A stretch of 64,000 nucleotides of DNA. It comes from an uncultured Methanosarcinaceae archaeon (GTDB taxonomy: Archaea; Halobacteriota; Methanosarcinia; Methanosarcinales; Methanosarcinaceae). A program made the translations under genes and the position numbers. Under the pieces are notes generated by a model. The model did no database searches. It saw nothing but the letters and a program-made list of their open reading frames with translations, and was not told the DNA's origin. Of this stretch, positions 2,503-60,203 are shown in pieces; the stretch's first letter is position 1, and the number at the start of each line of letters is the position of its first letter. The stretch is taken from positions 1-64,000 of the forward strand of contig CAWHXP010000010.1 of assembly GCA_963833425.1 (NCBI GenBank), read 5' to 3'.

Positions 2503-2534
2503 ATGCAGAAATTATAATGTTAAAACCTGTGCAT
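2503..2534. repeat. Family A dyad site (putative recombination site)
   Basis: atgcagaaattat-aatgtt-aaaacctgtgcat. Confidence 0.75.
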
Positions 2535-2555
2535 CAATAAAGTTATACATATTTA

Positions 2556-2702
2556 GATGCTATTGCAAAAAATCCTGCTTCGTAAAAACCAGTCTAAACT
2601 TTTAAAATTAGAAAAATTAATCAACTCATATCCGAAACAATGGTACATAAAGATAAGAATTGTAATAGTAAACTGCAGAAATATTATTTTTGCAACGGAA
2701 CC
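2556..2702 (+). mobile_element. IS6-related MITE, degenerate left end
   Basis: Right end ttttgcaacggaacc, left end gatgctattgcaaaaaatc; 147 bp, similar to other copies. Confidence 0.65.
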
Positions 2703-2759
2703 AAATTATGTAAGTTGTTTCAGGATATGTTTAAATTATAACAATTAAATTATACCAGT

Positions 2760-3056
2760 ATGGAAATCGCTTCCGAGCATAAAGAGTTATTTGAAAAAAT
2801 TACTGCATTCCTGAAAAAAGAAGGAGCGACAAAAATATGGATTTTTGGCTCTTATGCAAGAGGAGAAGAAAAAACGGAGAGCGACGTAGATATTCTTGTG
2901 GAATTTTCCAGTACAAAAAGTCTGCTCACCATGGTTAGAATCGAAAGAGAGCTGTCAGACTTTCTTGGAGTAAAAGTCGATTTACTCACTGAAGCTTCAA
3001 TTAGCTCGTACCTTATTGATGAAATTAAAAACGATGCAAAAGTGATCTCGACATGA
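2760..3056 (+). CDS. Minimal nucleotidyltransferase antitoxin (MntA-like)
   Basis: FGSYARGE...SDVDILVEF (GSX10DXD); overlaps the HEPN gene by 4 bp. Confidence 0.92.
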   Translation: MEIASEHKELFEKITAFLKKEGATKIWIFGSYARGEEKTESDVDILVEFSSTKSLLTMVRIERELSDFLGVKVDLLTEASISSYLIDEIKNDAKVIST

Positions 3057-3403
3057 GAAAAAATGATTTGGTTTACCTCAATCACATTCTCAACTCTATC
3101 AAAAGAATTGAGGAATATACTCAAAATATGGATAAAAGAGATTTTCTGTCCAATCACCTGGTTCAAGATGGAACGATCAGACAAATTGAGATCATAGGGG
3201 AAGCTACTAAGAATTTATCTAAAGATTTCAGGGAGAAATATTCTCAAATTCCTTGGAGCGATATTGCAGGTATGAGAGACAGGTTAATTCACCACTATTT
3301 TGGAGTTGACCTTCAGGCCGTCTGGAGCACTGTAAAAATCGATATCCCAGATTTTAAAGATGATATTTTAGCTATACTCGATGTTTTGAGATTCGAAAAC
3401 TAA
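3053..3403 (+). CDS. HEPN/DUF86 RNase toxin (HepT-like)
   Basis: EIIGEA and RDRLIHHY (RX4HXY) motifs. Confidence 0.92.
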   Translation: MRKNDLVYLNHILNSIKRIEEYTQNMDKRDFLSNHLVQDGTIRQIEIIGEATKNLSKDFREKYSQIPWSDIAGMRDRLIHHYFGVDLQAVWSTVKIDIPDFKDDILAILDVLRFEN

Positions 3404-3441
3404 AATACTCTTAATGAGTTATATTTTTTATTATGTTTATT

Positions 3442-3472
3442 GTGCATAGATTTTGCTATAAAACCTGTGTAT
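3442..3472. repeat. Family A dyad site
   Basis: gtgcatagatttt-gctat-aaaacctgtgtat. Confidence 0.85.
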
Positions 3473-4106
3473 ATTTTCCAGAATATAATTCAATATTTTT
3501 AATATTTGTTTTTATATATTATAAATAATTCACGTAATAGTATCAATGATATCTTTGGACAGGCCAATAGACCACCTAAAGATATTGCAACATTAAAAAT
3601 AAGTAAAAATATTATATGCCTGTTATTGTGTAAGTCTTAACCAAAAAAAAATAAAATTAAAGAGATATCCATTTATTCTCAAAAAGAGAAAAATTGTAGT
3701 GCTCATTGGATGCCTGGATAGTTATATTAAACCTGTTGCCTTCAAGTTAAGCAGAAAATATTGATTTATCACTTGATCCAACAGAAAACTAATTAAATAA
3801 ATGATCCCGGAGTTTTGAAATGTTTCAGTATTTATTGTTAAAATCCATCACTTATTTCATTTTTGGAATATCATACACATAAATTTTATAATTTCTAAAT
3901 TCAAGTATTTTTTTTGGCGGATTTTTATGCACAAAATTCTCATTTTCTTCTTTTTGGAACTGGCTTTGTATAATGAAAAAGTTTCCACTGGTCTTAGGTA
4001 ATTCTGTAAACCATCTTTCGCATGAGAGCCACATATAAGGCTTTATCATTGCATTTCTACTTGATAGGCTTTCATTTCTTTCAATTGTGTATGGATTGTG
4101 TCTAAA

Positions 4107-4538
4107 ATGAAATTTGATAGGCCTAATAATGATTTTTTCTTTGGATAGATAAGTTATGATGTTGGAGTCCCAATAGTTACCATTGTTATTCTTTATATGC
4201 TGCTCCTAGCGCTACTTGTTGGGGTGATACACATTCTTATGAATCTCAAATTACTTTTATTTGTGACCCAAGGGGGCGGCTTTAGTCAAATAGTATCAAG
4301 TATCCTAACGGTTTTTGTTCTTATCGACCTTTTCAAAATTTTTACTGATTTTCGCAAACATGAGGAAATAAGAATTATATATGTAACCGATGCTACAATT
4401 TTAATAGTCTTGCGTGAAATTGCGGCTACGGTATATGCTCAAAGATCTGATTTTCAAGTTATTATAGGTCTCTCGATATTGCTGCTGATATTGGGGATAA
4501 CCAAGGCTCTAGCTACTAAATATCCACATAAACAATGA
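4107..4538 (+). pseudogene. PsiE-like membrane protein, 5' part disrupted
   Basis: ORF 4197-4538 has ILTVFVLIDLFK and DATILIVLREI; upstream ATG at 4107 is separated by an in-frame TAG at 4146. Confidence 0.6.
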
Positions 4539-4602
4539 TTTTTCACTTAATCTGTAGTAAATGATGTATTGGCTCTCTAAGTATAATTGTAGCCGAAGTT
4601 AT

Positions 4603-5070
4603 CAAAATCGCCACATGGGTTTTAGCTCCAGATACTTCGATAGCCTTTTGATTCAAAACAGTTTGTAAGTGAAGTGCTTGAGCTTCAAGCTGATGATTCT
4701 TTACTCTCATTTGCTCTTGTATGTCAGCCAATTGGCTCTGAAGGCTCCCAATTGGTTCATCTTTCTCTTCCAATAATCTCTGTATGATTAAATATTTGCT
4801 CTCAAATCTACTAGTTCCACTGGTTTAGGTGCATCTTGTAAGGCACTATTAAATCGCTCTAATTCATTTTTCAGGCTGCCATTTTCTGCTAGCAAATTTG
4901 TGTAGTTTGCCATAATAGTGCTAGTTTCATTCTGGCATTCACTATCATCTAATAACCGCTCAAAACCTTGGGCCATGCCAGATTTGGGGCTTGTTTATCC
5001 GATATTTACTACATTGATATACAAATCAATCGGCGCCTATACGCACAATTTACGCTTGTCTTCTGGCGTA
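4603..5070 (-). pseudogene. Decayed paralog of the coiled-coil protein at 36702-37412
   Basis: Broken frames read PEDKRKLC..., LQTVLNQKAIE and PMWRF, matching MPEDKRKINCW...LINQKAIEAPGEKKPWWQFW. Confidence 0.7.
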
Positions 5071-5228
5071 TACCAGCAATAATAAGGCACTTGTAAAAAA
5101 TAATTCTAATTTGCTAGAAATTGTTCCAAAATGTTAGCACTATTTTTATACATACATTATTATAAAAAGTTAGTATTTCCTCAGTTTTGAATCCATATTT
5201 ACCTTAAAATCAAGGCAGACCTGTAAAA

Positions 5229-5260
5229 ATGCAGCGGTTTTGCTATATGAACCTATACAG
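5229..5260. repeat. Family A dyad site (degenerate)
   Basis: atgcagcggtttt-gctata-tgaacctatacag. Confidence 0.6.
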
Positions 5261-5501
5261 TAGTAAAACCAATAAATCCTATTTTTTATGATCAAAAAGA
5301 ATGGATATCAAGCAAATATATTGATTTTATCTGTATGTTTATGACACATTTTTGTATTTACTGGGCGCCAATTGACCAAATATCCATATTAAATATTAAT
5401 TTAGAGATCGGCTCAATTAGTTGTGTGCTTGAAAGTCACTATTATTTTGATTTTTACTTTGGGCTCTTCAACAATTTTTGTATAAATTTGTGTAAGCCTA
5501 T

Positions 5502-6503
5502 TCAGGGATCTTCAAAGTAGAATCCTTCTTTCATATACTCATCTAGGAATGCGAACACTTCACACATATTTTCAGCATTGTCGAATGATTCTGGGTCCCA
5601 GTGACCTGCTCCGTCAAGTAATGTAAGGATTACTTTATCCTGTCCTATTTTTTTTGCGATTGCAGCTGCAAGGTCAACAGATTGCTGCGTTGGAACTAGT
5701 GGATCCAACGTGCCGTGCTGAATTAAAAATGGGGGGCACTCTGAAGTTATATAAGTTGTGGGGTCTGCCTGTTTGCATAGGTCCGGTACCTTTGAAATAT
5801 TTTGCCCTAAATATTGTGACGGAGGAGAAGCTTCGGTATTATAAATTGGAACCCCCTGTATTATATCCTGAATTCCGCTTTCCTTGAATTGTTTATCCAT
5901 AATAGAGAAATTTGTAAAACCACACCAATCGACTACTGCTGTCACATTATCCGAAACGTTTGCGTTGCCGAGTGATGTATCATAGCAATTGTTTGTGCCG
6001 CCTGTTGTGCCTGCAAGGGCAGCAAGATTTCCACCTGCTGAAATGCCCCACAAAGCAATCTTGTTGGGATTTAAATTATATTGAACAGCATTAACTTTAA
6101 TAAAACGAATAGCTGCTTTTGCATCATTTATCGCTGCTGGGAATTTAGCTTCACCACTCAAACGGTAATCAACAGGTACCACTGCATAACCATGATTTAA
6201 GCCCTGAAGCATCTGGGCTATATATTTTCTATTATTATTGCCTGCAGTAAATCCCCCACCATGAAATGCTATAATCACAGGTAAAGGACCTTGCCCTTCA
6301 TTTGGCAGATATATATCAAGTTTTTGTGTCTCTGATTTAGTAGCATAAGCAATATCAGTGAATTTATTTTTAATGCTTGATGGCATTGATGTTCCATCCC
6401 AGCAATTGACTACACTTACTGTAATCGTCACGAATGCTATAAAAACGACTACCAATAAAATACTCAGTGTCCTTTTTGTTCTGTTTAATATCTGTTTTCC
6501 CAC
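5502..6503 (-). CDS. Secreted alpha/beta-hydrolase (esterase/lipase, HSL-like)
   Basis: Signal peptide; HGGGF, GISAGG nucleophile elbow, HGTLDPLVP, GAGH. Confidence 0.9.
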   Translation of the reverse strand: MGKQILNRTKRTLSILLVVVFIAFVTITVSVVNCWDGTSMPSSIKNKFTDIAYATKSETQKLDIYLPNEGQGPLPVIIAFHGGGFTAGNNNRKYIAQMLQGLNHGYAVVPVDYRLSGEAKFPAAINDAKAAIRFIKVNAVQYNLNPNKIALWGISAGGNLAALAGTTGGTNNCYDTSLGNANVSDNVTAVVDWCGFTNFSIMDKQFKESGIQDIIQGVPIYNTEASPPSQYLGQNISKVPDLCKQADPTTYITSECPPFLIQHGTLDPLVPTQQSVDLAAAIAKKIGQDKVILTLLDGAGHWDPESFDNAENMCEVFAFLDEYMKEGFYFEDP

Positions 6504-6919
6504 TTAAAGACTCCACAAAAGTGCATAAAGTAAACATTTATAAAATTAATTAGACTGTTGGCGAATACGATCTTAAGATTGTTGATATTTTAATTCGCTT
6601 GCCAGTAGTAGATGAAATACATAAATGCGATCATCAAATTTGGAAATCTAGCTAAAGTTCTTAAAGAAAATTGCGATTATAAACTCAGAAGCTATGTTCT
6701 ATATTTGGATAATTAGCATTTAAAATAAATATTAGTCAATTGAATATTAAATAATATAATATATATAGAAATATATATACTAATCGTTATTCAGTAGCTT
6801 ATTGACAAAAAGGTAGTTTATTGAAAGTTCTGTAAAATTAAAAAAGACATAGGTTAAATGCAGTCAATACCTAAAACATTCGAAAATTAGTGGTCCCTAT
6901 GCTAAAATGCAACCTTCCA

Positions 6920-6949
6920 CTGCATCGTTTTTCTATAAAACTTATGCAT
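6920..6949. repeat. Family A dyad site
   Basis: ctgcatcgttttt-ctat-aaaacttatgcat. Confidence 0.75.
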
Positions 6950-7198
6950 TAGTAAAAACAATATATTTGCATTAGTTGAAACAACATAAAGTCATTGTTA
7001 ATATTCATTTGTTTTTGACTGTGAAATATTTTATGTGATGTTATTTTTCGTTTATAAACTATTTTTCGTATCAGTAATTTTAAATAACCAGGCTTATAAA
7101 AATAACCATCTCTAAGTATGTACATCATCAGTACATAAAAAGAGAATAGAATTTACAAAATCATATATTTATAAAAATAAACAGGAAGTGTATGTTTA

Positions 7199-7324
7199 AT
7201 GGGAAAACAAATAGATAACGGAACAAAAAAGATAATAGGTATTCTCTTATCAGTCTTTTTCATAATATCAATGACATTAGCAACAGTAAACGCATTCATT
7301 ACCAGCGTGGATTGTGTTTTTTAA
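7199..7324 (+). CDS. Small leader-family peptide (41 aa, possibly truncated)
   Basis: Manual translation MGKQIDNGTKKIIGILLSVFFIISMTLATVNAFITSVDCVF. Confidence 0.5.
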   Translation: MGKQIDNGTKKIIGILLSVFFIISMTLATVNAFITSVDCVF

Positions 7325-7429
7325 TAGCAGGAATATCTACAGCAATAAACACAGTGACTACTACAGAAATGACAACACTACTGCAAAACAGTATCTTGTA
7401 TCAAATTCAGCAAATTTGGAGAGTAAACT

Positions 7430-7624
7430 ATGGGAAAACAAACATTTGACCGAATAAAAAAGACGCTTGCTATTTTATTGGTAGTCCTATTTTTAATATC
7501 AGTAACATCCACGGCAGTGAATGCAGAAACAACTACATTAGGTAACAATACTACTACAACTAAGACAATTATGGGAAGTAACAACAATACTGCAGAGTTT
7601 TGTGACAATCCAAGCTGTAATTAA
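7430..7624 (+). CDS. Small secreted Thr/Asn-rich leader-family peptide
   Basis: MGKQTFDRIKKTLAILLVVLF...AVNA signal; a degenerate repeat of the core follows to ~7748. Confidence 0.6.
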   Translation: MGKQTFDRIKKTLAILLVVLFLISVTSTAVNAETTTLGNNTTTTKTIMGSNNNTAEFCDNPSCN

Positions 7625-7823
7625 GGCCGTTATGGAAGGTACTGCAACGAAGACCATTATGGGAAGTAGCAACACTACTGCAACTACAACCGTTAAAGTA
7701 GGGAACAATACAACTGCAGAGTTTTTTACCGAGCCAGGCTGTGGTTAATCCAAATTAACAGTATAAGTAACAGCTTCATCTGTAACCACAGAGACCACTA
7801 CAGTAGCCAATGATGGTTAATAT

Positions 7824-8578
7824 ATGAAATCAAAATTTCTTATCTTTTTATTGATCATTTAGCTTGCTGAGAATGCTTATTTTGTCTTGTTTGAAGAACA
7901 GCCTTCCATTGAAAAAAGACATGGCCAAGAAAATCCCACAGGCATAAAGGGATTAGCTACTCTCCAGGGACCTACCGTCTTCAAGGCCGAAAAATCAGAT
8001 TCAACAGTTCCTGGAGAAGGTGCTCTATATAATATCTCTGTTGAAATCCAGCCAGGAAAGGGCCGTGTGCTCGTCCAGACAACTCCACTAACAGGTATAG
8101 GTTTCCAGGAAGCAGAGAACACTGCAGTCTTATTAGCTGAGACCATAACCGGGAAATCACTGTCAAGAAGTGACATTATATTCAGCATCGACGCTAACGA
8201 TCAAATTTCGCGTGTTGAAGGTCCCAGTGCAGGTGTTCCCCTGACTCTTCTTGCGATTTCAGCAATCAATAGCAATACAAAACTTAATGACAGCATCACT
8301 CTTACAGGCACTATTGATAGCAATGGCAACATTGGTAAGGTAGGCGGAATTCTCGGAAAAGCCAAGGTAGCAAAAGCTGGGGGGAAAACACTATTCTTAA
8401 TTCCCAGAAACGACAGCGAGCTTGTTATACACACATACTTAAAAAGTAATTTCGGTGGTCTTACTATTGTTGAGAGAGCATCGGAAATTGTGGATGCTAA
8501 AGAATATATAGAGAAAAATGAGGCATCAGAGTCGAATACGTAGATACAATTGACGATGTGTTGAATTACGAAAAATAA
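7824..8578 (+). pseudogene. Lon-C (S16) protease-domain protein, frameshifted
   Basis: EGPSAG, TGTIDSNGNIGKVGGILGK; N-terminal membrane segment and C-terminal GIRVEYVDTIDDVLNY are in other frames. Confidence 0.8.
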
Positions 8579-8649
8579 GGTTGATAAATTATAGACATCT
8601 ATACAATTGTGCTACAATCCTTCTTTTAAAATTAAATTGGAAAAGTTCC

Positions 8650-8680
8650 ATACATAGTTTTTGTAATTAAATCTATGCAT
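8650..8680. repeat. Family A dyad site
   Basis: atacatagttttt-gtaat-taaatctatgcat. Confidence 0.85.
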
Positions 8681-9168
8681 AAATGAAATCAATAGAAACA
8701 TAAGCTTTGTCAGTAAAACTATTGACTCTGCATCCTACTTTTTGCGGTGAAAGAAAAGATAACTTTGGAAATTCCATGGTCGTTTTGGATTAAAGCCAGA
8801 AAGATTAGAGATGTATAGCATAACCATAAAGGTAGAAGAACATTATACGCTAAAAATATTAAATATTTTAGGAACTTAGTATAACTTACGTTCTCATCTG
8901 CTACTACATAGCAACGATCTATTCCACAAAAATTATCCATCAAACGCTGTATAAAAATTTATTATATATGGTAAAAAAATAAAATCAAAAAAATGTAACT
9001 AGTGGGTCCATTATAGAATCCCTTCCATGTAAGATTGTGCCTTTAGGAACTTCAATAATTTTTCAGGTGAGAACGCAATTACCCCACTATTTTTTAAAAT
9101 TAACGAATGAACGGATATTAATAACTTTCTAACTTGGTTTATTATTTTTATTTGTTGTCTGATATTTG

Positions 9169-9199
9169 ATGTATATATTTTGTGCTAAAATCTCTGAAT
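9169..9199. repeat. Family A dyad site
   Basis: atgtatatatttt-gtgct-aaaatctctgaat. Confidence 0.7.
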
Positions 9200-9686
9200 T
9201 TCCTAAGTTCCATCTGAAATAGAAATCACTGTTGATCTATTACTCATGGAACTTATGGAGCTCATGGAACATCTGAAAATAATGTAACTAAACCCCAATC
9301 AAAAATTATAAAATAAGATAAATAATAATTAGATAGTAGTCAAAACTAGAAATATGAATAAACTAAATCAGAGACTAATTCCATACTCAGTAAATACCAA
9401 AAAAGAATTGTAAAATACAGAAATATATTTAGTATATTTTGATACCAATTAGGTATATAATTAATTAATTAATCTATTAAGTCTGATTGGTTTGTCAGAA
9501 ATTGGATAATGTATTTGAAATAGTGTGATAAAATATAAAAGCCGGCGCCAGCACTGTACTATTACCTGCCATAACACTGTTACTGGCGCTACTTTTACCA
9601 TTGCTGTGGATTACATTAACTGTTGTAGATGCCAAAGAAGCTACAACGAAAGCCACTTACATAAGGTCTGTTTTAAAGTTTCATTT

Positions 9687-9717
9687 ATGTATAGTTTTTG
9701 TGTGTAAATCTCTGCAT
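9687..9717. repeat. Family A dyad site
   Basis: atgtatagttttt-gtgtg-taaatctctgcat. Confidence 0.85.
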
Positions 9718-9804
9718 ATCTCTCACTTTTCGCAGATGCACACAAAAATGCTACCTATTTTTTTCAATAGTCCTATTCTCACTGTTTAGAATTGGAAGTG
9801 CGGC

Positions 9805-11139
9805 CTATATCCTTATGATAACTTTGGAAAGAGTCGCCATGAAAATTCCAAGAATTAACCAACCAAGAGCCCCTTCAAGTGCGACCAATTTCTTGAAACT
9901 ATCTCTAGGATACCAGTTATCATGGCTCATAAAAGTAAAACAGCCGAAGCTATAGTAAATTATATCCGTTAAGTATATCTTTTGATCCTGATCACGATCC
10001 CTTACAATACCAGGGTTCTTCAAAGCAAAAGGTAGTATTTTATTACTTTTTATATCCCAATATACATTTGCTGTTAAGCTTTTCAAACATATGGGATTTA
10101 CATATATACCCGAAAATAAAAATATAACCGCAATACCAAAAAAAATAGTATATAATGGTTTTACCCCGAAACCACAGGTGAGCCAAGAAAGAAAATCCCA
10201 CCAAAATTCAGAATCATTCCATTTTTCCTTTCTCAGTTTACTTTGTCGGTAGTTATAATATACGACATCTGCATCTGCGTATCGCCCCCGATCATTATAA
10301 TATTTATAGAATTTTTGAAAATTCTTCCCATCCAAAATAAGTTTTTCAGATGTTTCCGGCCCTATGAACTCGGCAGCATCATTAAATTTCGCCAAAGTGA
10401 AGTCGGCAGAATTATTAAAAATCGCCCAACTAAAGTCGGAAGAATTATTAAAAGTCGCCCCTGAGAAGGAGACTGAATTTTTAAAAAATACATTTGACAA
10501 ATTAAAAATGTCTTTAAAATTTTAGTTTGTTATTATGATATCGCTTTTAACAACACTTAAATGTTTTTTTAATCCAAGGGAAATAAGTAATTCTTTTGTG
10601 TTTCCGCGTCCCAAATATTTATTAAAATATGGACTGGGAACAGTTTCAAGTTTTATATTACTTATGTTTAATTTCCCAACTATGCTGCAGTTCACAAGAT
10701 TTATGTCGTCACCATCAGCTATATGTTTTAAGATATCTTCTGCGTGAACTACTGTAGACACTAATAAGATAAACTGGTCATCCATCCATAGTTTTTTAAA
10801 GTCGGGATCTTTCTTTGCTTCTTCTTTACACAATGAGTTAAGCTCTATGACTCTTTTTAAGTTAAATATTACTTGTTCTTTGTTATCAATATGAGAATAC
10901 AAACATGCACGATTGTACCAAGCATCTGAATGGTTTGGGTTAATTTCAATTGCTTTGTCATATGCCTTTAGTGCTTCGTCATGCTTATCTGATTCATCTA
11001 AAGCATTGCCTTTATGGATCCAAGTATTTGGATCCTTTGGATCAACTTCGGTGTATCCAGTTACCTGAACTACTGTAGACAGCACAGAAAATACCAGAGT
11101 TAGTAATAGGATATAAGAACCTAAAACTCCAGCTGTCAT
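9805..11139 (-). pseudogene. TPR + pentapeptide-repeat + channel-like membrane protein with one nonsense codon
   Basis: ORFs 10522-11139 and 9805-10500 are in the same frame, split by TAA at 10522-10524; TPR YDKAIEINP, ADFxxAxF repeats, WLTCGFG and hydrophobic C-terminus. Confidence 0.8.
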
Positions 11140-11183
11140 TTCTACACCAAGGTACTCTATATGTAAGCATAATTATTTATTTT

Positions 11184-11978
11184 TTGATGTCATCAATAAT
11201 TTTGCTCATTGATGACTCGGAGACATTAATTATGTTATTCCCACATTTTTTTGAGTCACTTAGTAGTGATAATCTAAAAATCCTAGATGGTACTTTTACT
11301 ATTGCAATAGTCACAGGAATACTTTATTATTTTGGTTATCTTTTGGAATTAAAAAATGTGGATAGATATGGAAAAAGACGACTATTTAAAGGATTTTTTT
11401 TTGTATTAACATTTGTTACTACTCCATGTATTGGATTTCATATTTTCATGAGAGTCACGTGTTTTGATTTTATTTAAACTCCCCATGATTCTAATCAACT
11501 TGTATATTGGTTTATTCAATATATATTGGTGATTATGCTATATATTTATGAATTTGGACAATTATCTCCAGAAGCAAAGAGAATTAAGGAGACAATTACA
11601 GCAAAAACTGATAAGGAAGTAACTGGTCATTTTACTTATATAAAAAAGAAACCAATAAAACATTTATTTACAATATTTTTACTATTCCTATTTTCGATGT
11701 TCACGATTTTTGTAAGTCTCTTCTATCTATTTGATTTAGAGTTAATGTCAATGACATTTTTAGTACTTTCTGTTATTGCTTTTGTGCTTCCTTTATATCT
11801 TAATGACTATGCAAAAGTTACCGTTTATTTGTCTGCAGAGAACAAGTCTCAGATTAACGGTTATTTGGTAATGAAAAGTGATGATGGTGTTAAAATTTAC
11901 AATGATGAGAATAACACATTTATTGACTTAAAAAATAATAATATAATACTAATTGAGTCACAAATCGATGATGTATAA
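11184..11978 (+). pseudogene. Hypothetical membrane protein, probably split by a frameshift
   Basis: Two consecutive hydrophobic ORFs, 11184-11477 and 11526-11978. Confidence 0.45.
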
Positions 11979-12146
11979 AATACAATTTTTCTCGCTTAGA
12001 AATGAAATAAATCAAGTAGTCTACCTTGCTTATAGAGAGAACTAACTAGCTAGTTAAGTTTGAGTAACTTTCTCATAGGATGTAGGGACAGCTTTGAGTA
12101 GAATTGCAGGATCAATTATGTAAATTGCATTCTCTACCATCTTAGA

Positions 12147-12177
12147 ATACATAGTTTTTGTGCCAAAATCTCTGAAT
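12147..12177. repeat. Family A dyad site
   Basis: atacatagttttt-gtgcc-aaaatctctgaat. Confidence 0.85.
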
Positions 12178-12728
12178 TTCCTAAGTTCTACCTGAAATAA
12201 AAAAAATATCGCTGATCTAATTACTCATGGAGCTTATGTGACTCATAGAACATCTAGAGCTCATGGAACACTTGGAACTAATTAACCCAAACACCCACCA
12301 TAAATAGAAAATAAGAAATAATAATTATATAAATTTGGCATTGTACCAAAAGTTCTGTAAAGTGTGGTTGATTCTATATCTTTTTCTTCCCAATGACAAA
12401 AATAGGGATTCTCAGTTTGTTAGCAAAATGAGTTAAGCAGTTACGGAAAAAAGCTTAAGCGCATCGGGTTGATTATCTCACTAACTACACAAACAATTTA
12501 TTATTATTGTTAATTTCATGTTGATAGATGTATTCTCCATGCATAATTTAAAAGGGTTGGTCACCTAATTTTCCAGGGCAATAATGATATTCCTTAAGGT
12601 AATCTCTATTGCTCTATTTCTTTTTTGAGTCTTTAGCTCAGTGATATTACTCCCATTTCAATATTTGATAATAAGTTTTTTAAAAAATTAAGAATTATAA
12701 CTCTTACAAAAAGGATTAATTTTCAGGA

Positions 12729-13286
12729 GTGAGTAATCTGGAAAAATACCAAAAATTCGTTGAGATGGCTGTCAAGCTGGGCGCCCACGATGCTAAGATT
12801 ATTAAGACAGATAGTATAGTCACAGCGGCGTGGACCAGATGGAAGTGCAGGTATGGATGTCCGGAGTATAACAAAAGCCTTTGCTGTCCGCCTAATTCAC
12901 CTACACATCAAGAGACTCGGGAACTGGTAGATTGCTATGAATACGCGCTTTTAGTACATTTTTCGCCAAATATTGACAAAGCGACGGAAGACCTGCTAAA
13001 TAGGATAAAGGTCATCACAAGGGACAGCACAACGGTCATCAACACGCTTGAGAGAGATATCTTCCTTGCTGGGTACTATAAGGCTTTTGCACTAAGCGGT
13101 GGTCACTGTCAGCTTTGCCCTGAATGCACGCTGAAGGATTGCAGGAATCCAAAGATTGCCAGACCATCGATGGAAAGTTGCGGTATAGACGTTTACAGCA
13201 CGGTGAAGAATAACGGCTATCCTATCGAAGTATTGACGGATGTATCCGATATGATGAACATCTTTTGCCTTGTACTGATCGAATAA
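12729..13286 (+). CDS. DUF2284 predicted metal-binding protein
   Basis: CRYGC, CCPP, GGHCQLCPEC, ARPSMESCGIDV; AGGA immediately before the GTG start. Confidence 0.88.
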   Translation: MSNLEKYQKFVEMAVKLGAHDAKIIKTDSIVTAAWTRWKCRYGCPEYNKSLCCPPNSPTHQETRELVDCYEYALLVHFSPNIDKATEDLLNRIKVITRDSTTVINTLERDIFLAGYYKAFALSGGHCQLCPECTLKDCRNPKIARPSMESCGIDVYSTVKNNGYPIEVLTDVSDMMNIFCLVLIE

Positions 13287-13402
13287 CCGAGATATCCTGT
13301 ATAATTTTTTCATCTTGGCTTTTTTTCATTAAAATAATATATTTCAGCTCTGTAGAATCCCTTTAAATTTGCCACAAATAACATAATTTCTTGTTTTTAG
13401 TG

Positions 13403-13433
13403 ATGCACAGTTTTTGATATAAAACTTATGCAA
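13403..13433. repeat. Family A dyad site
   Basis: atgcacagttttt-gatat-aaaacttatgcaa. Confidence 0.85.
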
Positions 13434-13927
13434 TAATCAAAGATAAAGTTTCTACAGCCTTTGAATTACGAAAATTTATTCTATTCTTTAATAAGTTGAG
13501 AATACATTTCCTTAATTTCCCATTTGAAGATAAAATGTCGCTGAGTGATTAACTCCAAAAATTATGGAACTTAAAAGTTGCCTACTTACAGGCAACTACT
13601 TAACTCTATGGCAGGATACCGACAGTGCAGTAAGGATAGCTTTGTATCTTTCATTCAAATATCTTCTTTTACTGTTTTTTTTCATAAATTGAAAGTTTTG
13701 CATACGAACCCCTATTTGTAATTGTTTATAATCATAATTTATTTTCAGTTCGAATAGATTAATATAGCATGTTGTTTTTCTATTGCTTGTTAGATTACTA
13801 AAATTCTATAGATTTTAGATCAGTATTTTATAGTTTTATAATATTGATTTAAAACTCGTGGTTTTTAGAATCTGACTTTATGAAAAAACGTAAGAAATAA
13901 TTAAATTAAACTAGAAGTGAGAAATTA

Positions 13928-14878
13928 ATGGTAGAACGTCATTCTATTGACATAAAACAAAATTCAAATGGTAGAGATAAAGCAATTAAAGAATTTAATA
14001 AGTTGTTTGAAAATTTCATTGAAAGAAGTGGTAACGTACGGGATTTAGAGAATTTTGAAATCCTTGGAACTGGAAAAATTGCTTTCAATAACACAGTTAC
14101 TGCAAAAAGTGGTACCTATAACGGAAAGCTACAAGGACTATATACTCACAATCAACTTGATAAAAGAGTTAAAATCTTCTCTCAACTGAAGGAACCAGGA
14201 AACGAAGAATTTATAGAAAGTGCCCTTAACTTTGCTTGCAATATTCAATATGGAGATTTAAGGGCCCAGGCACTTTCCATTCTTGTTCCTATTCTGGATG
14301 GGTCAAAAAAAGTCGAATTTATAGAAAAGGTCCTTTATTTTACTTCAAATATTCAAGATGAAAACGAAAGGGCCCTTGTTCTATCTTCACTTGTCTATCA
14401 TCTCAATGGGCATGACAAAGAAGAAATTATTGAACATATTTTGGATTTTTCTTCAAAAATTCAATATGATGATGCAAAGTTTCAGATTCTATCTTCTCTT
14501 ATTCCGCACTTTGCTGGATCAAAAAATGAAGCAATTATGGATAAAGCCCTTGAGCTAGTATCCGGGTTTATATCTGAATATAAAAAAATAGAGTCGTTTT
14601 CTCTTCTTCTTCCATATATGGATAAGCAAAGAAAAGAAGAAATTCTAGAACAAGCCCTTGAATTAGCTTTTAATCTCAAAGGTAAGAGCATGATGGCACA
14701 AGCTATCTCAGCTATTATACCGGGTCTTGATAAATCCAAGAAAAAGGAAATTAGTGAGAAAATATTTTATCTTAAACGTATGGGTAGATGTACGTATCTT
14801 TACGATAGAGCCGCTGTTCTTCGCAAAAGAGCAGAGACGCTTTCTTCTCTGGCACAGTATTCGGATATCTCTTGCTAG
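13928..14878 (+). CDS. Hypothetical alpha-helical repeat protein
   Basis: ~37-aa repeats (IQxExxRAxxLSSLxPxL...EFIEKAL). Confidence 0.7.
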   Translation: MVERHSIDIKQNSNGRDKAIKEFNKLFENFIERSGNVRDLENFEILGTGKIAFNNTVTAKSGTYNGKLQGLYTHNQLDKRVKIFSQLKEPGNEEFIESALNFACNIQYGDLRAQALSILVPILDGSKKVEFIEKVLYFTSNIQDENERALVLSSLVYHLNGHDKEEIIEHILDFSSKIQYDDAKFQILSSLIPHFAGSKNEAIMDKALELVSGFISEYKKIESFSLLLPYMDKQRKEEILEQALELAFNLKGKSMMAQAISAIIPGLDKSKKKEISEKIFYLKRMGRCTYLYDRAAVLRKRAETLSSLAQYSDISC

Positions 14879-15054
14879 ATATCTTGACAAACCAGGAATT
14901 TTGGTGATAAGAGTAATCAGAGTGAAAGACTCAAATTAATTTTTTGCCAGAAAAATTTTATTCTGAAGCGTATAAAAATTCTGTAAAATATAACCGGAGA
15001 TTAATCGATGGTTATAACAAAGCTTTTTTCTTATTTTTTTTCAATGTCCCATTG

Positions 15055-15085
15055 ATGCACAGTTTTTGTGATAGAACATATGTAT
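15055..15085. repeat. Family A dyad site
   Basis: atgcacagttttt-gtgat-agaacatatgtat. Confidence 0.85.
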
Positions 15086-15235
15086 TGCCTTGGATATTAC
15101 CAGCAATTATGATTAGTTCGTCATCTATAAATTTACATGCTTATTTTGAACTTTTTGCAACGAAACCTTTTGTTCAATATCCTAGCTGATAGCCAAGATA
15201 ATTATTTATCCGATATACACACTTGTGTATTTGGT

Positions 15236-15502
15236 ATGCATATGAAACAAGCTAGAATTAAAATGTCTGACCGAACCAATCAAGTTCTGAACATTGTTAA
15301 AGCAAAGTATAACCTTAAAGATAAGAGCGCAGCTATCGAATTAGTAGTAGCTAGATATGAAAGCGAAGTGCTCGAACCTGAATTAAAGCCTGAATATATC
15401 GAAAAAATGGAAAGGATTCATCAGGAAAAACCGGTTTTTATTGGTACTGTTGCCGAGTTGGACAAATTCATAGATGACTTGCCGGATGAAGATGATGACT
15501 GA
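15236..15502 (+). CDS. Antitoxin (DUF2683-like)
   Basis: NQVLNIVKAKYNLKDKSAAI...LKPEYIEK, acidic tail; overlaps the toxin gene. Confidence 0.8.
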   Translation: MHMKQARIKMSDRTNQVLNIVKAKYNLKDKSAAIELVVARYESEVLEPELKPEYIEKMERIHQEKPVFIGTVAELDKFIDDLPDEDDD

Positions 15503-15764
15503 GTACAAAGTAGCTGTTAATGCAAACATATTAAAAATTTTGAAAAAACTAAAGAAGAAAAATCGACAACTATACGAAGCTATTTTGAGAAAAGCAAGCG
15601 AAATAAGTGTTAAGCCACATCGATATAAAAATCTCAAGCACGAAAAAAGCGGATTAAGCAGAGTGCATATAGACCCTTTAGTTTTAACATTTTCGATAGA
15701 TGATGAATCAAAAACCGTGTTGTTAGAAGATTTCGACCATCATGATTTGATCTACAAAAAGTGA
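15492..15764 (+). CDS. RelE/YafQ-family toxin
   Basis: Basic ~90 aa; PHRYKNL, SRVHIDPLVLTF, DFDHHDLIY. Confidence 0.82.
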   Translation: MMTEYKVAVNANILKILKKLKKKNRQLYEAILRKASEISVKPHRYKNLKHEKSGLSRVHIDPLVLTFSIDDESKTVLLEDFDHHDLIYKK

Positions 15765-46959: not shown

Positions 46960-47547
46960 TTTTTTGAAAAAGCGATTCGCCCTTTTTTCTTGATCGACTA
47001 ATTTCAGTTAAAATATACAAAATCCCCACTATTATTATTAATTAATTGTACAAAAAATAGTTTCTGAATAAAAGTTACCTCTACATAAGAAATTTTAATT
47101 TTGAACAACAATTTAATATTAATTATGTCTTTATTATTTCCAAATAAATTCCTAAATTTAGCATAGATTTCCTTCTAAAAAAATAACTAAGTTAAATCTC
47201 ATACCAAATTCTGGTCGTGTACAAATCCTAAATGGGTTGATCTTGTTTTTTTTCTTCCCAATGAAAAACAGAAATTGCTCAGTCTATTAGCAGAACAAGT
47301 TAAACAGTTCGGGAAAAATAAGCTTAAAAGTATCGGATTGATGATCTTACTAACTGCACAAACAACATTTTATTGTTGTTAATTTCACGTTGATAGATGT
47401 GATCTCCATGCATAATTTAAAAGGATTGGTTCCCAATTTTTCAGGTCAATGATGAAATTCCTTAAGATAATCAATATTGCTCTATTTTCTTTTTGAGCTT
47501 TCATTAATTGACCTTAACTAGTAATGTAATCACATAAACGGTATAGT

Positions 47548-47830
47548 TCACACGTTCCTAGCGTCTTCCAATCTATAGCCTTGATACATCAACTCTTCTA
47601 ATTTTTCTTTAGAAGGAGTGTCTAATTCGATCTCTCTTCCTGAAGCACCCTGTCCTTTTCGGAGAGCGACTTCTTTAATCATACCAATCATAATTAATTC
47701 AGCGATAGAGTTTGCTACCGTTGTCCTAGCCCTGCAGTTTTCTCCAATCACTTTACTTATTTGGGTGTACGTATCTTTAATTTCGGTTGCAGTATCAATG
47801 ACTGCGATTGTATTTTCTTCCATCTCATAT
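47548..47830 (-). pseudogene. Orc1/Cdc6 C-terminal winged-helix fragment cut at a family A site
   Basis: YTQISKVIG...VANSIAELIMIGMI...GQGASGREI resembles the C-terminus of 20-1273; frame runs into site 47831. Confidence 0.65.
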
Positions 47831-47861
47831 ATGCACAGTTTTTGTGGTTGAACCTATGCTT
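47831..47861. repeat. Family A dyad site
   Basis: atgcacagttttt-gtggt-tgaacctatgctt. Confidence 0.8.
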
Positions 47862-47985
47862 TTTTTCCATTTAGCGAAAATTGAGAAAGTTTCAACCAAA
47901 AATTAGTTTGCTTGAGTAAGCGAAGCGCATAAAGCAGATAGTGCGCCGTAAAGACGAAGGAAAATGGCAAAACTCGGGTTGAAAA

Positions 47986-48339
47986 TTACTTATTCTTGAT
48001 ATCTTCCAGTATCCGTTCAATTGGCTCCTTTATAGAAGGAACATCTTTCTTTATAGTGCTCCAAATAATGGGAAGATCTACCACAAAGTATCCGTGAACT
48101 ACTTTGTCACGGATTCCTGCCATAAACTTCCATGGAACTTCTGAATATTCATTTTTCAGGGTATCAGGAATATTCTTTGCTGCTTCTCCAATGATTTCCA
48201 GGGATTTCGTCACGGCATATATTGTTTTCTTATCGCCGGAAAATTCATTAAATTCAATTCCTTTGACGAATTCCTCTATATCATCAATAGAACCTAGAAT
48301 ATCCAGCAAAAATTGAGTGGAATCCCGACTGTAAGTCAT
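47986..48339 (-). CDS. HEPN/DUF86 RNase toxin
   Basis: LEIIGEAA, RDKVVHGY. Confidence 0.92.
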   Translation of the reverse strand: MTYSRDSTQFLLDILGSIDDIEEFVKGIEFNEFSGDKKTIYAVTKSLEIIGEAAKNIPDTLKNEYSEVPWKFMAGIRDKVVHGYFVVDLPIIWSTIKKDVPSIKEPIERILEDIKNK

Positions 48340-48644
48340 AAAGATATAACCTCATTAAGGATATGTTTTTCAACATTCTGTTTGAGCCCAGTTCTTGTCA
48401 CTAGGTCTACTTTTACTCCCAGGAGATCACTAAGATAGTATTCAAGTTCAATGTATTTCAGGAGACCAGGTATTTTATCAAATTCTACCAGAATATCAAG
48501 ATCACTATCCTTAGTCTGCTCCCCACGAATATAAGACCCAAAAATTCCCAGATAGCTTACACTATATTTTTCTTTTAACTCAGGTAGATGTTTCCTTAAT
48601 ATCTTGATAAAATATTCTGAATCTTTTAACTCTTGAGAAAGCAT
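48336..48644 (-). CDS. Minimal nucleotidyltransferase antitoxin
   Basis: FGSYIRGEQTKDSDLDILVEF; start placed at the MLSQ ATG. Confidence 0.9.
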   Translation of the reverse strand: MLSQELKDSEYFIKILRKHLPELKEKYSVSYLGIFGSYIRGEQTKDSDLDILVEFDKIPGLLKYIELEYYLSDLLGVKVDLVTRTGLKQNVEKHILNEVISL

Positions 48645-48862
48645 TGTATATGGAGTCCTCCAAGTATCCCCACACAAATATGGTGAAAAAGTGAATTTGT
48701 TGCTAACGAGAATACGCATAATATCTATTTGTCATTTTCTCCAGTTTGTTTTTAACTAATGCGTTAGGAGCTTAGTAATGATTATTTTCTTTCCATATAA
48801 GTAGAACACTGTGCCTTAGAGCTACAGTGTACCGGAAGTTCTGTAAAATATTATTTTCATTA

Positions 48863-48893
48863 ACGCACAGGTTTTGCTATAAAACCTATGCAT
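48863..48893. repeat. Family A dyad site
   Basis: acgcacaggtttt-gctat-aaaacctatgcat. Confidence 0.9.
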
Positions 48894-48988
48894 AAGTGTA
48901 ATCAAAAAATATTATTTAGTAATGAAAAAAAGGGTAAACCGTAGTTCTTACAGAACTTTCAGTACACTACCTTCTCTACTTGATTGGG

Positions 48989-49138
48989 GGTTCCGTTGCA
49001 AAAAATCTGAACATTTTACAAAATCGTTGAAAACATTCACAATAAGGAGATTTTAGTTATCAAAGTTGAGTTAAAATAGTATTTAATGGAAATAATAATA
49101 GCCTCAAAGTACAGAAAAATTATTTTTGCAACAGAACC
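48989..49138 (+). mobile_element. IS6-related MITE (150 bp), left boundary of the composite unit
   Basis: TIRs ggttccgttgcaaaa and ttttgcaacagaacc; preceded by tgattggg. Confidence 0.92.
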
Positions 49139-49398
49139 AAATAACTATTTAGTCCATCTAAAATAAGTTAACAGATATCTATTCTACGTAATGTATATTT
49201 TTAATTGCTAACTGATGGAAGGATAAAATGGATTATTAACTAACAGTTAATACATAAAAAAATCGAAATTTGCTGCAAATTTATGCAAAAAAAGTTATTT
49301 ATCTTGTTTTAACCAGGCTGAATAGTTATTATTTTAGATTTAATTTTTATAGTCTTCTTCTAAACTGTAAAGTCTAGTACAACTTTCTTAAAATAATA

Positions 49399-49429
49399 AT
49401 ACATCGTTTTTGATATAAAACCTATGCAT
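49399..49429. repeat. Family A dyad site
   Basis: atacatcgttttt-gatat-aaaacctatgcat. Confidence 0.88.
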
Positions 49430-58422: not shown

Positions 58423-58434
58423 GAAGTAAAATCT

Positions 58435-58584
58435 GGTTCCGTTGCAAAAAATCTGAACATTTTACAAAATCGTTGAAAACATTCACAATAAGGAGATTTT
58501 AGTTATCAAAGTTGAGTTAAAATAGCATTTAAAGGAATTAATAATAGCCTCAAAGTACAGAAAAATTATTTTTGCAACAGAACC
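58435..58584 (+). mobile_element. IS6-related MITE (150 bp), right boundary of the composite unit
   Basis: Near-identical to 48989-49138; followed by tgattggg. Confidence 0.92.
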
Positions 58585-58706
58585 TGATTGGGAACTGAAT
58601 ATCTTAAAAAATGAAGATCCAATAAAAGAATCATTGGTTAATTGGTTGAGATTATTTAGGGCAAGCTAAAGAGTATCATATTGCCTTTCTGCGATACTTT
58701 GCCTAT

Positions 58707-59867
58707 TCAATATTCAAAAATAGCTTCAATTACGGGCTCTGCAAGTTTTATCACATCTTTTTTAAAAGAGTATATATCATCTAAAACAGCAGAATTTCTT
58801 CCCTTTAATAGTTTCTGTTTCAGTTTTTTCCCCAGAATGTCGTCGTTTCCCGCTTCCAGCCTGAGCACTAAAGACCCCGGATAAATTTCTGTTCGACGCG
58901 CAAGGTTGTCGCAGTCCCCGTCAATGATCCCGATAATAGGAATCTCAAGCCTGGAGAGGATGTCGCCTGCTATGGCTGTGGTGTCATCCCCCACGGTAAC
59001 TGCAAGTTCAGCTCCAGCAGCTAGTTCGAAGGTGTATTCTGCTTTATGATCTATAAGTACAACTTTTCCTGTTCTGAGCCTGGAAGAGAAACCTGAACTT
59101 CTGTCACAGGGATTTTGTTTTTGGGTATTAGGGAGTAAGAAATCGCTTCTTCTCAGGTTCCCACTCTTTGCCCAGGCTTTTGCAAGGTCAAGTGAGTCCA
59201 TTTTTTCATAATTATGAAGCTTTTCTAACCCGTGCTTCTTTAATACTCCCCCTTCGATTGCAACAATAAAGCCATTTTCGGAAACTATGCTTATTTTGGA
59301 AGATAGGGCTTTCCCAATCACGATCCCGTTTACCAGGATATTTTCACCGGGAAAGATGCCTGAAAGCTTGCGGATAACCCGGATTTTACCTGTGATCTGG
59401 CATTTTTCTACAAATACCTTATTTTGAAGAGGTAGAGGGCTTTTCATAGGAAGCCCTAAAGTCTCGGAAAGTGTCTCGAGGTATTCTCCTGCTTTTTTGT
59501 TAAAAAGTATCAATTTCCCATCGGTGCATTTTGGGCTTTCTATCTGGATAAGAGGCTTCATCTCCGGCTCTCTGAGACGAGCGACAACCATCGCTCCGAA
59601 TACCCCCCCGGTTTCAACTGTTTTTCCTCTGTTCAGGAGGCACACAAGGTTTGAGGTCTCAAAAAAGGCTTCGATACAGGCACTCGGCTTCAAGTGTCGA
59701 CTGATGTCTATAACATTTTCAAGTCCGGCATCAAGGACAGCTGTTTTTCCCATGGTCCCTCCAAGCATGGCCTCTACTGTGCCCATGCGAGAAAGTTTTT
59801 CAAGGACTCTTTTCGCCTCTCCCGAATCAATCACTTCGGGTCCGTGAATTACCAGGCCGATCTTCAT
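58707..59867 (-). CDS. DUF2117-family methanogen protein
   Basis: MKIGLVIHGPEVIDSG, GGTMGKTAVLDA, VTVGDDTT, GIIDGDCD. Confidence 0.85.
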   Translation of the reverse strand: MKIGLVIHGPEVIDSGEAKRVLEKLSRMGTVEAMLGGTMGKTAVLDAGLENVIDISRHLKPSACIEAFFETSNLVCLLNRGKTVETGGVFGAMVVARLREPEMKPLIQIESPKCTDGKLILFNKKAGEYLETLSETLGLPMKSPLPLQNKVFVEKCQITGKIRVIRKLSGIFPGENILVNGIVIGKALSSKISIVSENGFIVAIEGGVLKKHGLEKLHNYEKMDSLDLAKAWAKSGNLRRSDFLLPNTQKQNPCDRSSGFSSRLRTGKVVLIDHKAEYTFELAAGAELAVTVGDDTTAIAGDILSRLEIPIIGIIDGDCDNLARRTEIYPGSLVLRLEAGNDDILGKKLKQKLLKGRNSAVLDDIYSFKKDVIKLAEPVIEAIFEY

Positions 59868-59910
59868 TTTCAGCTGGTTTAAAGAGAAGACACTTATTAA
59901 TGTTGCCCTT

Positions 59911-60173
59911 AGAGCTTATCCAAAAAGTGTTGTAACCTACTGTAATATTTACGGTCCGTCGCTGTTCCTAAACCTTAAAGAGGCGCATCGTGCTTGCAAT
60001 CTGCATGTTCATAGGCCCAGGAATTTTTGCATTGACCGGCCTGGCTCGCAGCATGGGAACTATCCATGAAGCGATCCTTTCCTCGCTCCTTATAACCTTT
60101 GTTACCATTTCAATGATCCAGATATCTTCCTTCTTGGCCTGAAATTCCCTTCGACCACCTAGGCTTGCCGGAG
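59911..60173 (-). pseudogene. Possible IS5-like transposase C-terminal relic ending at a family A site
   Basis: GC-rich patch; broken frames read VEGNF/GQEGRYLD; stops at site 60174. Confidence 0.35.
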
Positions 60174-60203
60174 ATACACAGTTTTTGTAATAAAACTTGG
60201 TAT
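60174..60203. repeat. Family A dyad site
   Basis: atacacagttttt-gtaat-aaaacttggtat (1-bp deletion in the right arm). Confidence 0.75.

Follow-up and report, generated by a model that had tools for sequence, protein, structure and literature searches.

The window analysed here, a stretch of 64,000 nucleotides from an uncultured Methanosarcinaceae archaeon, contains an array of 28 dyad sites (2503..49429), which splits the region into modules and is the largest array of the genome. In the coordinates given below + and - denote the polarity of a site or the strand of a gene, and the cargo is named according to Pfam. The array begins with a site with a 6-bp centre (2503..2534), whose left flank is common to sites at C8:16674, C10:118130 and C2:187360 while the right flanks differ, followed by a first MNT + HepT pair (2760..3403, +), a site with the centre GCTAT (3442..3472, +), a site with a 6-bp centre (5229..5260), a BD-FAE esterase (5502..6503, -) and a site with a 4-bp centre (6920..6949). 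The next site (8650..8680, +) is the exact start of many genomic alignments, and the module that it forms with its successor (9169..9199, +), 8650-9169, is found again in another genome (G255) with both neighbours different. After a further site (9687..9717, +) comes a DUF2284 module that runs from site to site (12147..13433, +; sites 12147..12177, +, and 13403..13433, +), and an 87% match to it on contig C32 of G255 covers 12147-13424 and has different neighbours. A site at 15055..15085 (+) precedes a DUF2683 + ParE/RelE-type pair (15137..15764, +), and then follow a site with a weak right arm (15789..15819, +), one with a weak polarity call (18510..18540, +), one at 20316..20346 (+), one with a 6-bp centre (21188..21219), an SGNH/GDSL hydrolase (21212..22651, -) and two more sites (23014..23044, +; 23905..23935, +).

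From the site at 27290..27320 (-) up to position 39658 most sites have the opposite polarity. This block comprises a site at 29219..29249 (-), a second MNT + HepT module (29219..30625, site-to-site) with a 97% copy at C8:15295-16704 whose neighbours are both different, a site of ambiguous polarity (30595..30625), and a SHOCT module (30595..31533, site-to-site) with a 92% copy on contig C13 of genome G229, again with different neighbours; a contig of 1,320 bases from sequencing run X3 matches 30594-31527, i.e. the SHOCT module, only. The block continues with a site at 31503..31533 (-), genes of TrmB (-) and NAD synthase (+) (31944..33822), a site with a 6-bp centre (34789..34820) and a site at 39628..39658 (-). 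The following site (41082..41112, +) has the same left flank, letter for letter, as C8:17611 and C10:119066, and the right flanks are unrelated; this site starts a module of metallophosphoesterase, PRTase and ThiC (41082..45218), for which a 96% match on contig C7 of G229 stops 6 bp beyond the site and has different neighbours. The array is completed by sites at 45188..45218, 45997..46027 and 47831..47861 (all +), a third MNT + HepT pair (47986..48719, -), a site at 48863..48893 (+) and the site at its right end (49399..49429, +). An earlier note on this DNA had described an array of about 30 sites; the 28-site array stands, and the site at 60174..60203 is an isolated and weak one (score 20.7), 10.8 kb past the array.

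The cargo names proposed in that note agree with Pfam (three MNT + HepT pairs, DUF2683 + ParE, BD-FAE esterase, GDSL/SGNH, DUF2284, TPR, SHOCT, TrmB + NAD synthase); for the protein named a metalloprotease the Pfam match (M10/astacin) is weak. The cargo is a mixture of metabolic, surface, TPR and TA genes. A defence island was considered a weak reading: among 30 proteins, PADLOC hit the three MNTs and three others partially, and the cargo is mixed. IS and MITE copies abound in the array region, and the window contains no Rfam match and no tRNA. As had been claimed, it contains no integrase either: a scan of 51 proteins from the window gave no match to Phage_integrase, and none of the PF00589 matches of the genome is located in it.

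All 29 dyads listed originally are present in the window. A symmetric matrix with 13-bp arms, trained on 21 of them, retrieved exactly these 29 at a score of at least 15 and likewise at a score of at least 18, compared to a mean of 0.13 and 0.03 matches, respectively, in 30 shuffles; the 8 dyads outside the training set score 18.5-35. The consensus is ATRCAYAGTTTTT-G(T/C)(G/T)AT-AAAAYCTATGCAT, a fixed dyad of 30-32 bp with near-symmetric arms. The array is real, however not unique to the window: the matrix scan identified 235 polar sites in this Methanosarcina genome (80% complete), with a centre of 5 bp in 174, 6 bp in 43 and 4 bp in 18. Of the 235, 232 are intergenic. The sites are clustered, and 58 stand alone as complete dyads. 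Among 97 neighbouring pairs, the matrix-based polarity is the same in 78 and opposite in 19. The "either orientation" reported before for the units applies to the genes that they contain; the sites are polar and mostly direct. Within the genus, the number of pattern matches per genome ranges from 0 to 127.

Of 1,562 ends of alignments between repeated DNA, 44 fall inside a site in both copies, against 1.6 (max 7) in controls, and the refuting test by synteny breakpoints proposed earlier does not refute the reading. Where two sites have one flank in common, the other flank is not common in 74 of 80 pairs; the left arm tracks the left flank, the right arm tracks the right flank, and the switch of identity occurs within the 31 bp of the site. 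Thirteen of 15 pairs of site-to-site modules have at least one new neighbour. The centre is co-inherited with the G-side flank in 18/32 one-flank pairs and with the other side in 16/61; it differs in the remaining 14/32 and 45/61, possibly in part by later mutation, with identity above the 6.5% background on both sides. The two centres that flank one module are identical in 2/78 cases, no more than a background of 7%. These comparisons show that DNA has been exchanged with crossovers inside the sites and that the modules between sites move as units. Six low-copy alignments pass through a site; there is no clean empty-versus-filled pair (two weak trios), and among 34 indel events none has both ends at sites and three have one. 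The best-looking of these events, an esterase next to DUF2284 on contig C32 of G255, was considered as a deletion, but its module is paralogous and better matched by C8, so the case shows shuffling, not deletion. Among the joints listed for four sequencing runs (contigs, covering only 0.07-0.16 of the stretch) no excised circle closes a module at sites.

The candidate enzyme is encoded outside the window, on contig C6 (91902-92510): a tyrosine recombinase of 202 aa that consists of the catalytic domain only and scores above the PF00589 cut-off. Alignment-based structure prediction yielded the tyrosine recombinase catalytic fold (pLDDT 90.8; 35 from the single sequence), with XerA and Tn1549 Int as the best fold matches. 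The putative catalytic residues R56, R146 and Y178 are conserved in 121/121 family members, H169 in 119 and K143 in 118, and the C6 protein was also aligned to XerD. Since the profile search was length-unrestricted, the family appears to be stand-alone (median 192 aa; 6/150 representatives longer than 260 aa). This protein replaces XerA as the candidate put forward earlier; it reaches 19.4 bits with the XerA model NF040815 (cut-off 220), the IntI models TIGR02249 and PRK15417 do not match it, and PF13495 has no match at the gene. No site scoring at least 10 lies within 4 kb of the gene, which is accompanied only by a degenerate 31-bp site at about -130; a degenerate site is likewise all that its five orthologues have beside them. 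No homologue was found in phage records, or in viral contigs searched with two short peptide patterns.

In low-copy Methanosarcina genomes and plasmids the site is located 130-158 bp upstream of a ~200-aa recombinase gene. A generic 13-5-13 TTTT/AAAA dyad lies upstream in 27/44 distinct full-length loci, against 53/1,049 control windows, and the arms change as the identity of the recombinase protein falls. A variant pattern derived from distant homologues matches 3/177 genomes, each time directly upstream of a homologue; for a second variant site a homologue is absent within 1.5 kb at 7/8 fetched loci, and homologues in L019, L022 and L150 have two sites nearby. An orthologue of 94-100% identity occurs in six genomes, which have the highest counts (52-127 pattern matches each, against 0-33 in the other 53), although all six belong to one clade, and 33 matches occur in G257, where the homologue is only 75% identical. 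The intact orthologue occupies a fixed chromosomal locus; comparison of five of the loci revealed synteny over 5-20 kb. These comparisons show that the site is linked to the ~200-aa recombinase family and co-varies with it.

We consider it very unlikely that the sites are genuine recombination sites served by another enzyme, namely an integrase of 378, 388, 405 or 443 aa or a XerA missing from the assembly. The genome, 80% complete, does encode 14 further PF00589 matches (15 in all), a site is found 300 bp upstream of one of the 405-aa genes (C10:102506-103723), and members of another small family (191 aa, 19% identity) lie near sites in L017 and L029. However, no site within 4 kb scores above 12 for the three remaining 405-aa copies (one 99% identical) or for any of the five 378-aa copies, the 405-aa copies reside in shared elements that carry a primase, and only the 200-aa family exhibits cross-genome linkage and arm co-variation.

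The presence of gene and site on plasmids, and the existence of tyrosine recombinase-like relaxases with an oriT adjoining their genes (PMC6414798), would also suit a relaxase of the MpsA/TcpM type, with the dyad as origin of transfer and modules mobilised by nicking, without reciprocal recombination. This is very unlikely: MpsA exceeds 300 aa and requires MpsB, the five plasmids are typed as non-mobilizable, with no transfer genes listed in the four that were read, and the two-arm dyads form head-to-tail arrays and hybrids that look reciprocal.

Operators are typically dyads, the conserved promoter region of a gene family may stop at an operator, and IS and MITE copies are plentiful here; hence the site might only be bound, as a nucleoid anchor or as an operator for the small protein or for a transcription factor, with rearrangements due to homologous recombination or nearby IS activity. 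Such a reading retains very little probability, as the sites have no fixed upstream position (the distance to the start codon is broad, CV 0.90, in the operator test proposed earlier), are over-represented rather than rare between convergent genes (70/232 vs 345/1,532, p=0.013), switch identity internally and vary in number from 0 to 127 in one genus. The notion of tandemly inserted non-autonomous transposons, with the inverted arms at both module ends as 13-bp terminal inverted repeats and the centre as a 5-bp target duplication (a common length), is highly improbable and already largely refuted by the missing duplications (2/78, see above); in addition, the 58 lone sites are complete dyads, and the site is tied to a tyrosine recombinase, not a transposase.

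All the comparative results agree with the earlier reading, a site-specific array of cassettes on which a tyrosine recombinase acts in trans. We propose, with a probability of roughly three in four, that the dyad is the recombination site of the ~200-aa catalytic-domain-only recombinase, a plasmid resolution module that was domesticated and shuffles cassettes in trans. The module would comprise the gene, the 31-bp site and a 29-bp promoter dyad, which covers the TATA-like box of the recombinase gene and is probably an autoregulatory site; ancestrally it may have served plasmids and integrated elements as a multimer-resolution system. Within a single Methanosarcina clade, one copy would have become a fixed chromosomal gene that lost its own intact site, with the domesticated recombinase now acting in trans at hundreds of sites. 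Two monomers would bind the arms, strands would be cut near the inner TTTT/AAAA edges, and a match of the 4-6-bp centres would not be required, just as Tn1549 Int and IntDOT do without it. Arrays of accessory modules of 0.5-5 kb could then be built and reshuffled through excision, integration or cointegration at the sites.

Integrons and the dif modules of Acinetobacter are known to shuffle cassettes by site-specific recombination, and our literature search found no description of the dyad site or recombinase system. If the proposal is correct, methanogenic archaea have a separate solution, with an undescribed site, an uncharacterised minimal recombinase and accessory genes organised chromosome-wide, which would partly account for the gene plasticity seen in these Methanosarcina. 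A mechanistic question follows directly, namely how 13-bp arms would be recognised and mismatched centres tolerated without a core-binding domain. The proposal is open to immediate testing, since an 80%-identical enzyme and the same site are present on plasmids of cultured M. barkeri (for the enzyme, NZ_CP009527.1). With its matched site variants, the 200-aa family could serve as a compact genome-engineering tool.

The system is not a member of the integron, pdif or XerA/dif groups. The R''/R' boxes (RYYYAAC...GTTRRRY) of attC sites, which fold as single-strand hairpins, are absent from the matrix of the 31-bp TTTT-N5-AAAA dyad; the 202-aa enzyme does not match IntI models, its sedentary C6 gene has no attI-like site, modules include intergenic DNA and genes facing either way, and the 235 sites are spread over many contigs. 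Archaeal integrons and CALINs, with IntI, attI and attC arrays, do exist (bioRxiv 10.1101/2022.02.06.479319) and resemble our system in the tyrosine recombinase, the head-to-tail mobile accessory cassettes with many TA pairs and the arrays without adjacent integrase; the array sites in one orientation (78 vs 19 neighbours) are a further likeness.

The pdif sites (PMC13141974; see also PMC6449649 on dif modules of Acinetobacter plasmids) are short double-stranded two-arm sites with variable centres, at which modules are shuffled in trans and one centre mismatch is tolerated; they use the host XerC/XerD, distinct arms, 6-bp spacers and alternating C/D and D/C orientation, on plasmids. Here we find one enzyme, near-symmetric arms unlike those of the pdif table, mostly 5-bp centres and chromosomal arrays. 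The analogy drawn in the earlier note is partial, because it holds for modules that recur in new contexts with boundaries at sites (13/15 pairs), whereas inversely oriented flanking sites occur in only 19/97 neighbouring pairs.

Tn916/Tn1549 Int and IntDOT (PMC5871717, PMC2817482) share the AT-rich inverted TTTT...AAAA arms around a variable crossover, which in their case spans 5-7 nt and need not match; the same tolerance may hold here. Those integrases have domains for arm and core binding and each mobilise a single conjugative element, whereas here a catalytic domain alone is associated with arrays. Tn1549 Int is among the fold matches of the C6 protein (TMq 0.62-0.64). An arm-binding integrase, an excisionase and a conjugation module, as in conjugative transposons, are not seen here (family median 192 aa), and no conjugation families were named among the window and array cargo.

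With XerA/dif the system shares the single recombinase, the two-arm site and XerA as top fold match, but dif is single-copy with an 11-6-11 layout (PMC8371274), against 235 sites here. The C6 enzyme also lacks the N-terminal SAM-like domain and falls short of the XerA cut-off (19.4 vs 220 bits). Plasmid resolvases of the Cre/loxP type likewise employ one recombinase on a two-arm site, and the single site adjoining the gene on plasmids suggests multimer resolution. We give even odds to the broader proposition that this is a third, independently evolved cassette system in addition to integrons and dif modules, namely a genome-wide archaeal platform with one self-repressed, domesticated, catalytic-domain-only recombinase and more than 200 polar sites, in which integration would be one-sided and mismatch-tolerant with the cassette's own centre at its downstream end, and in which the many arm specificities of the family would amount to a natural collection of very small, orthogonal recombinases.

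At all 29 positions listed in the earlier note the dyad is present, and a matrix built from 21 sites returns exactly 29 sites in the window at a score of at least 15 or at least 18 (30 shuffles: 0.13 and 0.03), the 8 window sites outside the training set scoring 18.5-35. The site array is a real and unusual feature. The source genome (4.07 Mb in 21 contigs, 80% complete), of which the window is C10:1-64000, contains 235 sites with a score of at least 18, against 2, 3 and 2 in three shuffles, with a centre of 5 bp (174 sites), 6 bp (43) or 4 bp (18). Gaps between sites are shorter than 3 kb in 53% of cases (16% expected); the largest array is that of the window (28 sites), the next ones have 10, 8 and 7 sites, and 58 sites are solitary. 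The centre has a polar consensus, G-(T/C)-(G/T)-A-T, and neighbours at most 5 kb apart have the same polarity in 78 cases and the opposite one in 19 (p=1e-9). In the window the polarity is plus from 3442 to 23935, mostly minus from 27290 to 39658 and plus again on to 49429. The cargo of the modules, i.e. the DNA from one site to the next, was confirmed as named earlier.

Sites with AATGT/ACATT-like centres are of ambiguous polarity (2503 and 30595 in the window; C8:16674, C10:118130 and C2:187360 on contigs of the same genome), and C8:16674 seemingly serves as the upstream site for the modules on either side. The commonest centre, GCTAT/ATAGC (40 sites in this genome, including 3442 in the window), is the same as the crossover in the Tn1549 CI5 crystal DNA, as given in an excerpt of PMC5871717, which is probably a coincidence.

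Comparison of the source genome with itself, for which 781 low-copy alignments were retained from 6,731 after removal of high-copy repeats, revealed 44 of 1,562 alignment ends inside a site in both copies, versus a mean of 1.6 (maximum 7) in 200 in-register shifts; 6 low-copy alignments continue across a site, and duplication from site to site is seen for three units. Among 319 sites from this genome and the fetched loci, 80 pairs have one 50-bp flank in common (at least 86%), the second flank being common in 6. The variable arm positions track their own flank (left 0.85 vs 0.46, right 0.77 vs 0.54), and since each arm follows its own flank, the crossover lies between the arms. Among 268 site-to-site segments (all from the source genome plus targeted regions in four relatives), 27 group into 13 families, equivalent to 15 pairs, of which 10 have changed neighbours on both sides, 3 on one side and 2 on neither. 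A copy of the MNT-HepT module (29219-30625) that is 97% identical lies at C8:15295-16704; the SHOCT module (30595-31533) is found again in the relative G229 (contig C13) and, in a 1,320-base contig from sequencing run X3, is the sole part that fits; the DUF2284 and ThiC modules of the window recur in G255:C32 and G229:C7, respectively. By sequence comparison, then, DNA has been exchanged inside the sites and the modules between them have moved. Three results count against this: no clean empty site was found among the compared segments, which yielded two weak trios; of 34 indel events, 3 had one end at a site and none had both; and no circle junction appeared among the junctions listed from the sequencing-run contigs.

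An operator role, for which the earlier note expected a fixed distance from promoters, was considered as well. With genes called as simple ORFs of at least 100 aa, 232 of the 235 sites are intergenic, the next start lies at widely scattered distances (quartiles 315, 563 and 1,095 bp; CV 0.90), and 70 of the 232 lie between convergent genes, versus 345 of 1,532 random intergenic points (p=0.013); we rejected the operator on both the broad distances and the convergent positions. Transposon ends with target duplication were rejected because the two centres flanking a module are identical in only 2 of 78 cases (7% background), so that the centres are not target duplications.

The candidate enzyme for site-specific exchange is a 202-aa tyrosine recombinase encoded outside the window (C6:91902-92510), the single intact copy in the source genome; a broken second copy (C11:39482-39828; 41-47% identity, two frames) has a site upstream at C11:38942. 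The predicted fold is that of the tyrosine-recombinase catalytic domain (pLDDT 90.8), matching XerA (4a8e, 5hxy) and Tn1549 Int (6en0), with R56, K143, R146, H169 and Y178 retained; domain-model searches detected no N-terminal domain, and the median length is 192 aa in the best 150 of 1,680 representative relatives. Each of G204, G229, G251, G255 and G258 has one orthologue (94-95%), with a conserved neighbourhood across the five loci compared. The six genomes with this gene have 52-127 pattern matches and the remaining 53 have 0-33, the six representing one clade and hence one event. The larger integrases of the source genome lie within multi-copy elements, with no site nearby except in one case. 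None of the proteins tested scored as high as the XerA cut-off (four long integrases scanned in the 80% complete assembly); should XerA really be absent, chromosome dimers might be resolved by the small recombinase as well.

Of 251 genomes of the order, 41 have the site pattern, and these belong only to genera g1 (37/48) and g7 (3/6). In low-copy genomes a gene for a ~200-aa tyrosine recombinase often follows directly downstream of the site (L019, L020, L022, L024, L025 and L035 among 20 loci fetched); the 31-bp site is then at -130 to -158, and a second dyad (29 bp, 3-bp centre) covers a TTTAAATA-type box near -50. We take this box to be the TATA box. The C6 copy and its orthologues keep the promoter dyad, while their own 31-bp site is degenerate. 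As protein identity falls (80, 63, 61, 54, 48%), the outer arm letters change and TTTT-N5-AAAA is kept; a generic dyad of this shape is found upstream of 27 of 44 distinct full-length recombinase loci versus 53 of 1,049 control windows. A first variant pattern matched in 3 of 177 family genomes, each time directly upstream of a homologue, two of the three matches not being independent as the pattern was built from homologue loci; a second matched in 13 of 59 genomes, but at 7 of 8 fetched loci the surrounding 1.5 kb contained no homologue. The small recombinase is also encoded on five Methanosarcina plasmids, the two closest of which have a single site and a single promoter dyad, both adjoining the gene, as expected of a resolvase. 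Gene and site are linked and co-vary in sequence.

Five sites are accompanied, at a distance of 82-86 bp that matches the spacing 5' of the recombinase gene, by a 29-bp dyad, with no such gene following (C2:180788/180872, C4:20241/20327, C5:13993/14079, C10:104023/103941 and C20:114382/114300); they are probably relics of the recombinase 5' module. A second family of small tyrosine recombinases (191 aa, 19% identical) is found near the same sites in L017 (G174:C1:3226600-3238600), where five sites with unannotated genes between them precede the gene, and in L029.

Other features accompany the array. Window 32024-42598 is 99.8% identical to the entire 10,580-base contig G258:C122, due to either recent transfer or a binning effect; 1-32000 and 58600-60100 gave no such match to it. 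A ~150-bp MITE-like repeat with dozens of genomic copies of at least 2 subtypes occurs at 48989-49148, 52400-52550, 58435-58585 and 63277-63425. Small proteins of a multi-copy family, often inside modules, have a common signal-peptide-like start and His/Gly-rich or low-complexity tails (18719-19015, 19273-19578, 26031-26330, 60401-60703). The left edge of the array has a cdc6/orc gene (20-1273), and a different array contains part of one (L126:9475-10131), which hints at plasmid-derived DNA. Segment 34789-39628 carries (35113-38704) small HTH-like and coiled-coil genes, an IS6-family transposase and a HicB gene, and is partly common to integrase elements on C5, C6, C10 and C20.

As to the mechanism, 18 of 32 independent pairs with a common G-side flank have identical centres, versus 16 of 61 with the other flank (p=0.006), an asymmetry that may be partly inflated as polarity calls rely on the centre itself; both classes exceed the 6.5% background. 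Module ends on the opposite side were seen in 1 pair at 88% or more and in 13 at a looser 75% cut. We infer that the small recombinase binds and cleaves the sites, and that exchange would favour, without needing, matched centres, with a net crossover near the right edge and a module order of right arm, genes, left arm, centre. There are precedents for this: according to excerpts, Tn1549 Int uses AT-rich arms, a 5-7-nt crossover and the target consensus TTTT-n6-AAAA (PMC5871717), and IntDOT requires identity only beside the first cut (PMC2817482). Modules may travel as single circles or as cointegrates, the latter route being proposed for dif modules in part of PMC13141974.

A full-text literature search, with most subscription papers outside its scope, returned no published description of the site or array; the excerpted archaeal integron paper (bioRxiv 10.1101/2022.02.06.479319) does not mention Methanosarcin-, and the portion covered of an archaeal recombinase review (PMC8371274) lists uncharacterised single-domain families without the word 'cassette'. 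The proposal of a cassette array served in trans is supported by the crossovers between arms, the module movement and the recombinase linkage, and we give about three chances in four to a so far undescribed system of cassette shuffling in archaea, in which a minimal tyrosine recombinase that has been domesticated acts in trans. By the tests that define them, the array is neither an XerA/dif system nor an integron nor a set of dif modules, yet it would work similarly to the latter two, and a module in the order given above would resemble an integron cassette that brings its attC along.
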